Assembly (NCBI RefSeq): GCF_017348835.2
Contig: NZ_CP071375.1
From: Escherichia coli
Lineage (GTDB): Bacteria > Pseudomonadota > Gammaproteobacteria > Enterobacterales > Enterobacteriaceae
Strand: one strand, 5' to 3'
Length of the DNA stretch: 64,000 bases
Below are positions 36,101 to 39,100 of this stretch, piece after piece (position 1 is the stretch's first letter; the number at the start of each line of letters is the position of its first letter). A program made the position numbers.

Positions 36101-39100
36101 ATGGCCCGGTTGTGTCTGGTTGCGAAATAAGGCTGAAGCATAAAGGCGATAAACCAACTAACAACTAAATACTGAAGATTTAAATCAGAAACGATTTTTA
36201 TTAAATCCTTAACCGGAGGGATTCCTGCACCCTCAGAACATCAGGAGGCCGCCCGAAAGGGCGGTAAGAAATGAAACATTATTTAGAAAAAAATTACCCA
36301 CGAAAGAGCAGAGCAACAGAGTTTCTGTTTTTCATTCTGTTTATAGTGTTGATGATACCGATATCCCCGCTATTACTGGTCTGGATAATTGGAAGGACAT
36401 TTGAACCAGTTATTGAGCTATATACCGATGTGACATGGGAATCATTCAGCGCACTGCACAATAAAATTAATCCGTATAAGGAAAACTGATATGAGCACTA
36501 TTACCAGAGAACGCGCGGAGATTAAATCATACATCACAGGCTTCCTGAGCGACTCGGCGCACGATAACAAGTCTTCAGACAGCCTGCTGGCTAATGTGTT
36601 TCGTATCGCGCTGGCATCACTGGAAGCAGAGCCGATAGCAATGGTAGTGCCTGATGAAATGGATTTGCTTACCTGCCATCTCGACGGTGTAACTAAAACA
36701 TATGCTGATGGCTGGAACGCCTGCCGCGTCGCCATGCTTCAGGCCGGAAACTTTCGGGAAAATAAGAATTCGTCAACCAACAATTTTCGGGAAATCTCGG
36801 AAACGTCAACCAGATCTCCGATAACTCTGGATGGCTGGATAAGCTGTACTGAGCGAATGCCTGAAAAGAGCCAGAACGTGCTTATTTCGATGAATATCGA
36901 TAGCGAGGCTGGGCCATTAATATATTCCGCACGCTATCTCGGAGGCACGTTCCGGCGCGGAGGTATAGCAGTTAGTCCGGGTAATGATCTTAGGCAAGCA
37001 ACCCACTGGATGTCGCTACCAGAACCGCCGCAGGAGGTGAATCAATGACCTGGCCTGAAGCATTCACAACGGTAGGAATTGCGATGGCGGTGGCGCTGGT
37101 GGTGTATTCGATTTGCCGCTGGGGATAAAAACGGTTTGCGGGAAAAGGATAGTTAAGTAGAATTGCTGCGGGTGCTTGAGGCTATCTGCCTCGGGCATGA
37201 ACACCAACGGCAGATAGAGAAAAGCCCCAGTTAACATTACGCGTCCTGCAAGACGCTTAACATTAATCTGAGGCTCAATCCATGCTGAACACATGTAGGT
37301 TAGCCTCTTACGTGCCGAAAGGCAAGGAGAAGCAGGCTATGAAGCAGCAAAAGGCGATGTTAATCGCCCTGATCGTCATCTGTTTAACCGTCATAGTGAC
37401 GGCACTGGTAACGAGGAAAGACCTCTGCGAGGTGCGAATCCGAACCGGTCAGACGGAGGTCGCTGTCTTCGTAGACTACGAATCTGAGAAGTAAGAGACC
37501 AGGCGGGGGAGTAATCTCCCGCCACCTCTGATGTGTCAGGCATCCTCAACGCACCCGCGCTTTACCATACTGAAAATGCTGTTTGAATGTTCATCTCTGA
37601 AAGAGGACTATGAATGAAAAAGGTATTGATTGCAGCACTTATTTCCGGTGTGTCTTTTGGCGCTTTTGCACAGCAGGGTGGTTTCCAGGGGCCAGAAGCA
37701 GAGCGTTCAACAGTAGCGCAGGCAAAAGAACTGAAGGATGATGCATGGGTTATCCTTGAAGGGAGCATCGTTAAAAAAGTGGGTGATGAACGTTATGAGT
37801 TTCGTGACAATAGCGGGACAATTGTCACGGATATTGATGACAGCGTATGGGCCGGGCAGAATGTTTCTCCGAAAGACAAAGTAAGAATTGAGGGTGAAAT
37901 TGATAAAGACCTGAGCAGTGTTGAAGTTGATGTAAAGGCACTGAAATTATTAAAGTAACCGCCCCTGCTTGTTAAGCCCGTCTTACTGACGGGTTTTCTG
38001 TTTGTACATTCCGGCGTATTGCCTTACAATTCGCGCAGTCAGCCTGAACAACTGACACCTGCTGTCACCGGAGAATCCGATGACACAACACATAAAATCC
38101 CACAATTCTGAAGCCGACCCGGAAATTAAGCAGGGGAGGCGTTTTCGTGCGCCTCAGTATGGCTGGTTTCACTATCTGTTCTGTACGATCGATGAGGCAG
38201 ATATGCTTCAAGAGGCGTATCTGCGTCGCGGTGTCCGTGTGGAGCGGAGTCTGAACGCTGATCGTCTGACCTGGACCGTTTCTGTATATCTTCCTGTTCG
38301 TGCACATCTGCCACGGACACATGCCTGCTACCGTCAGCGCGTCTGGAGGTAATGTGCGGGTATTACTTCGACCTGTTCTGGTTCCGGAACTCGGGCTGGT
38401 GGTCCTTAAGCCCGGTCGTGAATCATTGCCAGTTTTTCATCGCGGCAGGGTGCTGGTGGAGCCGGAACCGAAAAACATGCGGGCGCTGCCATCTGGAGCG
38501 GTTCCTACTGTTCGCCAGCCGCTGGCGGAAGATAAATCACTGCTGCCATTTTTCAGCGATGAGCGGGTGATTCGTGCAGCTGGCGGCGCTGGTGCACTGT
38601 CTGACTGGTTATTACGTCACGTGAAATCCTGCCAGTGGCCACACGGCGATTATCATCACAGCGAAACCGTTATTCACAGTTACGGTGCTGGCGCAATGGT
38701 GTTGTGCTGGCACTGCGACAACCAGCTGCGCGACCAGACCTCCGAATCACTTGAGCAACTTACTCAACAAAATCTGACAGCCTGGATGATTGACGTCATA
38801 CGCCATGTAATGAATGGCACGCAGGAGCGGGAATTATCGCTGGCTGAATTATCCTGGTGGGCAGTCTGCAATCAGGTGGTGGACGCATTACCTGAGGCAG
38901 TATCGCGTCGCTCTCTGGGATTACCGGCGGAAAAAATCCGCTCCGTATACCGTGAAAGCGACATCATACCGGGAGAACAGACCGCCACCAGCATACTGAA
39001 GCAGCGCACAAAAAATATTGCGCTACCGCCTCACACCCACCAGCAACAGAACCCACCACAGGAAAAGACGGTGGTCAGCATTGCCGTTGATCCGGAGTCT

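Follow-up and report, generated by a model that had tools for sequence, protein, structure and literature searches.

The locus considered here raises the question of how a prophage-encoded Hok toxin is restrained. Within the 64,000-nt stretch of Escherichia coli DNA that was analysed (the window), the original prediction had recognized a 51-aa toxin resembling hokD/relF, had found it odd that relBE does not adjoin it, and had left it undecided whether an antisense Sok-like RNA or translational coupling to an in-frame upstream ORF holds the toxin in check. Lambdoid (Stx-type) phages carry a hok/mok/sok type I toxin-antitoxin module, hokW-sokW, of which the locus is almost certainly an intact allele, and because it is an intact copy of this module the question has an ordinary, known answer. 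hokW-sokW is a phage-borne pair of toxin and antisense RNA that has already been described and tested, and the locus is thus a known system. It carries little weight as a discovery, having been annotated in phage 933W already at deposit in 1999 and characterized in 2021; its practical value lies in annotation. In the RefSeq records used here, only the 51-aa Hok CDS is called, and the sok RNA, the mok ORF and an upstream 27-aa ORF are absent, so that a reader of the annotation could mistake the locus for an orphan toxin. The parts of the module that were mapped are an mRNA promoter, tac/fbi, ucb, dcb, the mok ORF and a minus-strand Sok gene with its own promoter (Table 1).

Table 1. Features of the hok locus and its neighbours, with positions in the window
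Feature	Position	Strand	Basis or remark
DUF551 gene, upstream neighbour	36491..37048		E = 5e-20
Unannotated 27-aa hydrophobic ORF between DUF551 and hok	37045..37128	+	often travels with the hok unit
Putative hok/mok mRNA promoter	37136..37163	+	sequence reading and conservation
Full-length hok mRNA	37170..37556	+	5' end by homology; 3' end taken as the fbi end
tac (translational activator) element, GGGUGCUUGAGGC	37170..37182	+	invariance and pairing with fbi
ucb (anti-SD box), AGCCCCAG	37223..37230	+	pairs with mok SD in the full-length fold
mok Shine-Dalgarno (SD), GAGG	37270..37273	+	invariant in alignment A1
Hypervariable block: Sok 5' recognition tail, target, first mok codons	37275..37297	.	
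mok ORF (= MokW), 70 aa, in frame with hok	37282..37494	+	100% identical to 933W MokW
Sok antisense RNA gene (sokW), 71 nt, +1 at 37290	37290..37220	-	misc_RNA sokW of 933W, AF125520.1
Sok promoter	37325..37297	-	homology, conservation, published mutant
dcb, AGCCUC, overlapping the Sok -10 region	37302..37307	+	complement of the mok SD region
hok SD, AGGAG	37325..37329	+	9 nt before ATG
hok toxin gene (= hokW), 51 aa	37339..37494	+	Pfam PF01848 match; identical to HokW
CUACGAA loop with Tyr47 codon UAC, candidate TadA A-to-I site	37476..37482 (A 37478)	+	local fold
3' UTR hairpin, GGCGGGGGA / UCUCCCGCC	37502..37523	+	MFE fold
fbi (fold-back inhibition) element, CCUCAA(C)GCACCC	37544..37556	+	MFE fold
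YgiW/YdeI-type BOF protein with signal peptide, downstream	37614..37958	+	Pfam PF04076, E = 2e-33

Toxin gene and prophage setting

Assignment of the 51-aa product to the Hok family is borne out by a match to Pfam HOK_GEF (PF01848; E = 4e-23, 81 bits against a cut-off of 22) that covers the full profile (1-42), and RefSeq names the product Hok/Gef family protein (WP_000813258.1). The hok gene forms the last 51 codons of a 70-aa ORF, and the span 37282-37494 first given for the toxin is correct at its end but not at its start, since 37282 opens mok and hok begins at 37339. The neighbours had been rightly described as a DUF551 gene upstream and a YgiW/YdeI-type gene downstream, in a nin-like region. 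Prophages show an enrichment of hok genes, and the setting here is the replication-to-Q part of a lambdoid prophage, with DUF968, RusA and antiterminator genes downstream. This prophage is of a non-Stx type, no stx being found between Q and the lysis genes. Of 22 sequence variants of the small hydrophobic ORF between DUF551 and hok, 21 are uninterrupted and one (L056) has an internal stop; five of them differ by synonymous changes only (3-4 nt, 0 aa).

The likeness to hokD also holds, K-12 hokD being 94% identical over 37325..37566, a stretch that opens 14 nt ahead of the hok ATG and closes shortly after fbi. As had been stated, neither RelB nor RelE is encoded near hok in the window, and hokD of K-12 indeed follows immediately after relB-relE. 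This absence is, however, no anomaly: neither the two genes nor their remnants stand beside hok at any of 80 related phage loci, so that missing relBE is the normal state. K-12 hokD is without tac, ucb, the mok start, the Sok transcript and the Sok -10 box; judged by this comparison it is a 5'-truncated derivative, the exception rather than the rule, and a misleading reference. In one relative (L054), an IS is inserted in the leader at 37325..37329. The K-12 hokD breakpoint, at the same nucleotide, was compared with this IS in search of remains of it, but no similarity was found, and the shared breakpoint before AGGAG is therefore unexplained or coincidental.

Sok RNA and folding of the hok mRNA

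Restraint of the toxin had been called not evident, yet an antisense Sok gene maps to the minus strand at the position annotated as sokW in 933W. The suggested search of this strand for a promoter-driven antisense RNA thus leads to Sok by homology to 933W, although a generic consensus scan found neither a sigma-70 promoter nor an intrinsic terminator on either strand in 37000..37700. The promoters of both Sok and the mRNA deviate from the thresholds of such a scan, and for this reason they were placed by homology, conservation and a published mutant. The Sok promoter has a -35 TTGCCT (37325..37320) and a -10 TAACCT (37302..37297) separated by a 17-nt spacer, with +1 six nt further on. The region is highly conserved among 49 variants and identical to that of Sp5, whose -10 mutant lost antitoxin activity; the primer for the promoter-less mutant, YO-421, replaces exactly 37296..37302 of the window (PMC8621323). 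The Sok RNA of Sp5, a 99% identical copy, has been detected by northern blotting and has antitoxin activity (PMC8621323). Sok is predicted to fold into a 14-nt single-stranded 5' tail, a hairpin of ~53 nt and a 3' UUUU (dG -30 kcal/mol, z = -5.0), and three pairs of its stem show compensatory changes. The recognition tail and its target lie in a hypervariable block, where mean column entropy reaches 0.82 versus 0.25 for the whole alignment; 18 distinct versions of this block occur among 49 variants with Hok at least 92% identical, and one contig carries two different Sok-tail versions in tandem.

On the plus strand, the mRNA promoter would consist of a -35 TTGCGG (37136..37141), a 16-nt spacer and a -10 TAGAAT (37158..37163), 6 nt from +1. 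TAnnAT is kept at a constant distance from GGGTGC in all 36 distinct upstream variants, even with unrelated sequence further upstream. The following sequence, 37170..37344, matches Rfam RF01794 over the whole model (1-157 of 157; 113.5 bits versus a gathering score of 59, E = 2e-26). This match lies on the hok sense strand, and the model, built for the hok/sok family, is one of the leader. Placement of Sok on the plus strand, according to the orientation of this 'sok' match, was rejected, because the 157-nt model covers the hok leader, beginning at +1 and reaching the hok ATG, and hence describes the sense strand. Rfam matches to ceN48, sR2 and G-CSF_SLDE near the locus are far under their gathering scores and were judged to be due to chance. 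The conserved unit among the 80 phage loci extends over about 37151..37566.

The full-length mRNA is predicted to fold with a dG of -162.6 kcal/mol (z = -7.7 versus shuffles). In the MFE fold its ends are joined by 12 bp between tac and fbi (37170..37181 with 37544..37556, base 37550 being bulged), and fbi is the best partner of tac in the entire mRNA (-21.5 kcal/mol). In 49 distinct variants, 12 of the 13 tac columns are invariant, fbi varies at the bulged 37550 besides one change from G-C to G-U, and the helix is 100% paired; because it is almost invariant, evidence from covariation is absent for this helix itself. Other helices contain 11 pairs with compensatory changes versus 2-5 in slid controls, and the 3' UTR hairpin has three such pairs among the variants. 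A terminator hairpin after fbi was not placed by the consensus scan. Seven of the eight ucb bases are invariant in alignment A1, with G 37230 at least 90% conserved. In the full-length fold, ucb sequesters the mok SD, which is also complementary to dcb; the duplex energies are -9.5 kcal/mol for ucb/mok SD and -10.7 kcal/mol for ucb/tac, and dcb can pair with the mok SD region over 6 bp without a mismatch (-10.4 kcal/mol); the stretch 37303..37311 is invariant in A1. The closed form (ucb/mok SD) is thus predicted in the full-length MFE fold, and the tac/ucb and SD/dcb duplexes are energetically possible. MFE folds of RNAs with 3' ends at 37535, 37525 and 37520 gave a local 5' hairpin of the metastable type instead of the open tac/ucb structure, so that the refolding step was not reproduced in silico.

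The in-frame upstream ORF that had been suspected of translational coupling can be identified as mok, for which coupling is the predicted role. It reads through hok from the ATG at 37282, its SD lying 8 nt ahead. An upstream ORF that reaches or reads through the hok start is found in all 49 variants, with a first codon other than ATG in two of them, and it occurs in three arrangements, namely in frame with hok (38 of 49), in the +1 frame (six) and as a 19-codon ORF ending at an ATGA on the hok start (three). As the frame varies and no part of the locus is more variable than roughly the first five codons of this ORF, it is translation into the hok start that is kept, not the peptide. The same variation makes it very unlikely that the functional product is the 70-aa, N-terminally extended Hok and not a coupling leader alone, even though a start at 37282 would add 19 residues and the in-frame arrangement prevails. 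In plasmid R1, moreover, mok is out of frame with hok. HokW made from its own ATG alone is toxic (PMC8621323), which also argues for mok as a coupling leader.

Integrity of the locus and proposed mechanism

The Mok/Hok protein is 100% identical to MokW/HokW of 933W, and the mRNA differs from that of 933W/Sp5 at two bases, 37247, which lies within a hairpin loop, and 37502, where the window has the majority, paired state among variants. All unmutated primers of the Sp5 study (PMC8621323) match the window exactly, and many genomes of O157:H7 and O121 contain an identical 521 bp (100%). The locus has neither an IS nor a frameshift or stop, and its regulatory elements are all intact and in the majority state of the 49 variants. 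These observations leave hardly any likelihood, slightly less than that of an extended Hok, for a decayed, non-functional chromosomal relic like K-12 hokA, hokC, hokD and hokE, passive in a defective prophage. Such a fate would have precedents, in that IS elements or rearrangement have inactivated the majority of the hok loci in K-12 (PMC12214031) and L054 has an IS in its leader, and the prophage in the window may be non-inducible. However, the protein is identical to that of an active allele (PMC8621323), and the thought that the sequence might turn out identical to a chromosomal hok pseudogene has no bearing on an intact locus whose product is that of an experimentally active toxin. The least probable reading is an orphan hokD/relF-type toxin without an antisense partner, checked only by mRNA structure or upstream-ORF coupling or else silent: K-12 hokD indeed has no Sok partner behind relBE and the generic scan gave no minus-strand promoter, but the region absent from K-12 (37170..37324, with tac, ucb, the Sok transcript, the Sok -10 and the mok start) is wholly present here, sokW is annotated at the homologous 933W site, and the Sok promoter validated by mutation in Sp5 has the same sequence as that of the window.

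With the locus read as intact hokW-sokW, the function of the window copy can be transferred by analogy from an allele that is 99% identical but sits in another prophage and at another position. Experiments on Sp5 have shown that its hokW-sokW works as a type I toxin-antitoxin pair (Takada et al. 2021, PMC8621323). HokW causes growth arrest, which sokW expressed from its own promoter counteracts; the protection is lost in the -10 mutant and depends in part on RNase III and Hfq (PMC8621323). After mitomycin C treatment Sok is gone and HokW appears, and deletion of the locus halves phage release (PMC8621323).

The mechanism proposed for the window copy is inferred from its sequence; it has been demonstrated for plasmid R1 and partly for Sp5 hokW. 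A constitutive promoter would give a hok mRNA of about 390 nt, in which pairing of the 5' tac with the 3' fbi would lock the full-length RNA in the closed form; ribosomes presumably cannot load on it because ucb sequesters the mok SD. Slow trimming of the 3' end, a processing shown only for R1 (PMC9841398), would take off fbi and let tac capture ucb, making the mok SD available, and ribosomes translating mok would then reach the hok start and enable hok translation. The unstable 71-nt Sok, transcribed from the opposite-strand promoter, would bind the processed mRNA over the start region of mok by means of the single-stranded 5' tail, blocking mok translation and forming a duplex that RNase III would cut; hok translation would be blocked because mok is. 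Hok would thus be made only when the supply of Sok fails, for example upon induction or loss of the prophage, and would enter the inner membrane to collapse the membrane potential. As a likely extra layer, TadA would edit the Tyr47 codon to Cys. The most probable role, by analogy with Sp5, is to speed lysis and phage release after induction, with prophage stabilization and exclusion of other phages as alternatives. Against this reading, the chromosomal hok loci of K-12 were reported not to bring about post-segregational killing, in work cited in 10.1101/2025.08.07.668861.

Candidate editing and comparison with known systems

In the local fold, CUACGAA forms a 7-nt loop on a stem of 37472..37475 with 37483..37486 (ensemble frequency 0.74). 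This loop has the same sequence as the anticodon loop of E. coli tRNA-Arg(ACG) (argQ), and its TACG core is invariant in 49 of 49 variants. The stem-loop has the YUACGAA form expected of a TadA substrate, as the motif is defined (PMC12255301), and the homologous Tyr codon is edited in hokC, hokD and hokE (PMC5630033, PMC12214031). By analogy, editing would likely recode Tyr47 to Cys in this gene as well and so supply a second periplasmic cysteine. Since the Tyr47 loop copies the tRNA-Arg(ACG) anticodon loop exactly, toxicity of HokW may depend strongly on TadA. We propose tentatively, holding the joint claim to be somewhat more doubtful than probable, that toxicity is strongly TadA-dependent and that the Sok tail with its target acts as a diversifying specificity cassette, both possibly undescribed so far. 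If this were true, pairing of the edited Cys47 with Cys30 would make RNA editing a further gate in addition to Sok, mok and fbi, and diversity of the ~20-nt Sok tail/target could allow as many as ten hok/sok copies to coexist per STEC genome without cross-protection.

Among known hok mRNAs, TadA edits hokB at Tyr29 and hokC, hokD and hokE at Tyr46 (PMC5630033, PMC12214031, PMC12255301). The window gene resembles them in that its C-terminal Tyr is encoded by UAC within YUACGAA in a predicted loop, with the partner Cys30 hard-coded. Unlike most K-12 targets, the 7-nt loop of hokW is the full tRNA-Arg(ACG) loop, which is reported only for hokB among them; K-12-type FTAY alleles fold with a 9-nt loop, in contrast to the 7-nt loop of the hokW type (…FVDYES…). 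K-12 hokD (relF), in the relB-relE-hokD operon of Qin, is placed equivalently, with a DUF968 (ydfU) gene and Q downstream of it. K-12 has relBE in place of the sequence upstream of 37325, whereas in the window the module is complete and relBE is missing.

The closest relatives are hokW-sokW (mokW) of the Stx2 phages 933W and Sp5/VT2-Sakai (AF125520.1; PMC8621323), with identical Mok/Hok and the same Sok promoter; Sok differs from theirs by one loop base and the mRNA unit by 2 nt. With 933W, the window has in common a block of 976 bp, 37030..38005, that also holds the 27-aa ORF and the YgiW/YdeI-type gene. In 933W, this block is located in another host element, with L0135 and L0134 as its neighbours at the attR-proximal end, whereas in the window it lies between DUF551 and DUF968/RusA/Q, a nin-like position that is the commoner one among the 80 phage loci.

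From hok/sok (parB) of plasmid R1, the prototype of type I systems, the window module differs in being phage-borne with mok in frame with hok, whereas the R1 module is plasmid-borne with mok out of frame, and also in that the consensus scan makes no terminator hairpin evident after fbi. HokW is reported to be 44% identical to R1 Hok (PMC8621323). The two systems nevertheless share tac/fbi and ucb/dcb, as these elements have been defined (PMC9841398), together with mok, a Sok of tail and hairpin, and a Hok/Gef toxin, although the phage allele has been shown to help lysis and release and the R1 system serves plasmid stabilization.

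Identity of the locus

The Pfam Hok/Gef profile is matched over its whole length (E = 4e-23) by the last 51 codons of a 70-codon ORF on the plus strand, and AGGAG lies 9 nt ahead of the ATG at 37339. The toxin gene therefore starts at 37339, and 37282 is the start of an upstream in-frame ORF. The original prediction of a 51-aa Hok-family toxin is correct, but the stretch given for it, 37282..37494, begins with the upstream ORF. Its neighbours, DUF551 and a YdeI-like gene in a nin-like region, are found as claimed. Beyond the latter lie genes for DUF968, RusA and an antiterminator. 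The locus occupies the nin-like (replication-to-Q) segment of a lambdoid prophage, whose integrase adjoins potC/potD in the closest genomes.

The 521 bp around hok are 99% identical to the Stx phages 933W and VT2-Sakai/Sp5, and recur with 100% identity in many chromosomes of O157:H7 and O121. The 933W record carries the annotations mokW and hokW together with an antisense misc_RNA, sokW, all of which can be transferred to the window (see the table). 933W encodes an identical Mok/Hok protein, and its mRNA unit differs from that of the window in only two bases, one in a hairpin loop (37247) and the other at 37502, at which the window shows the base-paired state of the majority. Rfam RF01794 ('sok') gives an end-to-end match at 37170..37344 (113.5 bits; gathering score, 59), the sole one within the 64-kb window. 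It falls on the hok sense strand because what the 157-nt model represents is the leader of the hok mRNA, with the Sok target in it. The family is named 'sok antitoxin', and a strand taken from its match is the opposite of that of the Sok gene.

How the toxin is restrained had been considered not evident, and a search of the minus strand for an antisense RNA had been proposed; sokW is such an RNA, with promoter boxes TTGCCT and TAACCT. The locus is an already known system, and the puzzle is solved by a canonical, published mechanism. Sp5 hokW-sokW was studied by Takada et al. (2021; PMC8621323). HokW stops growth and is neutralised when sokW is expressed under the control of its own promoter; protection is lost upon mutation of the sokW promoter −10 box, is restored in part by sokW in trans, and partly depends on RNase III and Hfq. 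Upon exposure to mitomycin C, sokW RNA disappears and, dependent on RecA, HokW is found in the inner membrane about an hour ahead of endolysin. Deletion of the locus halves phage release. All the unmutated primers of that study match the window exactly, and the promoter-less primer replaces 37296..37302, which identifies TAACCT as the Sok −10 box.

Features of the hok/sok locus and of its surroundings (window positions)
Feature	Position	Strand	Remarks
naRNA4 (CssrE)	8320..8396	+	Rfam 63.9, just above gathering score 59.5; outside prophage part examined
DicF antisense sRNA	30505..30556	-	Rfam 76.7 bits; early-left region of hok-bearing prophage
DUF551	36491..37048		upstream neighbour of hok
27-aa hydrophobic ORF	37045..37128	+	MTWPEAFTTVGIAMAVALVVYSICRWG; unannotated; ATG overlaps DUF551 stop codon (ATGA)
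hok promoter	37136..37163	+	predicted; TTGCGG, 16 nt, TAGAAT; ends 6 nt before GGGUGC (37170)
tac	37170..37181	+	pairs with fbi
ucb	37223..37230	+	AGCCCCAG; holds mok SD in full-length fold
mok SD	37270..37273	+	GAGG; held by ucb in full-length fold
mokW	37282..37494	+	from 933W annotation
sokW	37290..37220	-	from 933W annotation
Sok promoter	-35 37325..37320; -10 37302..37297; +1 37290	-	TTGCCT, 17-nt spacer, TAACCT
dcb	37302..37307	+	AGCCUC; complements mok SD
hokW	37339..37494	+	from 933W annotation
CUACGAA loop	37476..37482	+	predicted 7-nt loop with Tyr47 codon UAC, A at 37478
fbi	37544..37556	+	pairs with tac
YgiW/YdeI-type BOF protein	37614..37958		downstream neighbour of hok
Phage tRNA gene	40752..40827	+	ARAGORN: tRNA-Met (CAT); RefSeq: tRNA-Ile
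Phage tRNA-Arg (UCU) gene	40928..41004	+	
STnc100	41774..41966	+	145.8 bits
AgvB, anti-GcvB sRNA	41967..42028	-	96.5 bits

Structure of the hok mRNA and Sok RNA

The full-length 391-nt mRNA folds far better than shuffled sequences (z = -7.7). tac pairs with fbi over 12 bp with one bulge, and fbi is the best partner of tac in the whole mRNA (-21.5 kcal/mol). The alternative pairings defined for plasmid R1 (PMC9841398) are all possible in the window (tac/ucb, -10.7 kcal/mol; SD/dcb, -10.4 kcal/mol; the metastable 5' hairpin, -18.5 kcal/mol). Folds of truncated mRNAs gave a metastable-type hairpin, not tac/ucb. A simple consensus scan reported neither promoter nor terminator in the hok region and, in particular, no intrinsic terminator between fbi and the YgiW-like gene (37557..37613). 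The refolding step is therefore a presumed one, and the 3' end of the mRNA a putative one. R1 has a terminator at the equivalent place after fbi, and conservation among relatives ends at about 37566. The place of the hok −10 box is kept in 36/36 distinct upstream variants, even with unrelated sequence further upstream. Sok is folded into a 14-nt free 5' tail and a long hairpin followed by a UUUU run (z = -5.0).

The predicted loop with the Tyr47 codon is identical to the anticodon loop of tRNA-Arg(ACG) and fits YUACGAA, the TadA mRNA editing motif (PMC12255301), and in hokC, hokD and hokE the homologous Tyr is edited to Cys (PMC5630033, PMC12214031). It is thus reasonable to predict editing of hokW as well, with A37478 as a candidate A-to-I site changing Tyr to Cys. 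CTACGAA in a 7-nt loop occurs in 30 of 49 distinct hok variants; in another 18, TTACGAA or CTACGAA lies within a 9-nt loop, as in K-12 hokD, and one has CTACGTA.

Variation among phage loci

A HokW scan of viral contigs yielded 80 loci, whose common block (about 37151..37566) corresponds to the transcription unit, starting at the −10 box and ending shortly after fbi. The 49 distinct versions were aligned, and the MFE structure of the window was counted on them: 96% of cells are paired (34-41% with slid partners), and changes on both sides occur in 11 pairs (2-5 in slid controls). Compensatory changes are found in the 5' stem, the Sok hairpin, the 3' hairpin and other helices. All sequences keep tac-fbi paired, but the helix is essentially invariant, and is thus supported by conservation, not covariation.

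All 49 versions retain an upstream ORF that extends to the hok start, in three arrangements: in frame with hok in 40 (38 starting with ATG, two with ACG or ATA), in the +1 frame in six, and, in three, as a 19-codon ORF whose stop overlaps the hok start in ATGA. This variation fits a role in coupling rather than a conserved Mok peptide. That the functional product is a 70-aa extended toxin is unlikely, given these shifting frames and the toxicity of HokW alone (PMC8621323). Decay into a hok relic is likewise unlikely, all the elements being intact and in the majority state, and, with Sok present, an orphan toxin lacking an antisense partner is excluded.

Variability within this hokW-sokW system is by far the highest in the block 37275..37297 (entropy 0.82 vs 0.25 overall), which comprises the 5' tail of Sok with its target and the opening mok codons; 18 versions occur among 49 loci whose toxins are at least 92% identical. 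One phage contig carries two tandem hok/sok loci (L073, 2587..2984 and 3956..4352) with differing tails. Such variable tails suggest that antisense specificity is diversifying.

Of 22 sequence variants of the 27-aa ORF that adjoin hok loci, 21 are open and one, L056, is interrupted by an internal stop; five show synonymous differences only. The ORF probably encodes a genuine small membrane protein missed by RefSeq records. Elsewhere in the window, the region around DicF bears dicB and ydfD in the annotation of strain 88_1577, which is near-identical. The tRNA at 40752..40827 is probably a tRNA-Ile with lysidine-modified CAU. Downstream of Q and the tRNA genes come STnc100 and AgvB, placed back to back; in an Stx phage this is the stx position, and TerB-family and DUF3927 genes are annotated there instead.

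Comparison with K-12 hokD and phage 933W

The absence of relBE beside hok, pointed out originally, is borne out, and K-12 hokD does lie behind relB-relE. Homology of K-12 hokD to the window (94% identity) is confined to 37325..37566 and starts no earlier than 14 nt ahead of the ATG, so K-12 hokD has lost tac, ucb, the Sok transcript with its −10 box, and the mok start. RelB/RelE is beside hok in 0/80 phage loci, the commonest context being, as in the window, a YgiW-like or Rem gene followed by orf90, DUF968 and RusA. The window thus represents the standard state and K-12 hokD a truncated derivative. The hok leader of one relative, L054, is interrupted by an IS (1890..2987) carrying a transposase ORF of 357 aa, and a copy of AGGAG (37325..37329) flanks the IS on either side. 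The homology of K-12 hokD (L004 4289) breaks off at precisely this nucleotide, and the junction in K-12 shows no similarity to the L054 IS.

The block that 933W has in common with the window is limited to window 37030..38005; in 933W it is located at the attR-proximal end beside L0135 and L0134, the rarer position among the phage loci.
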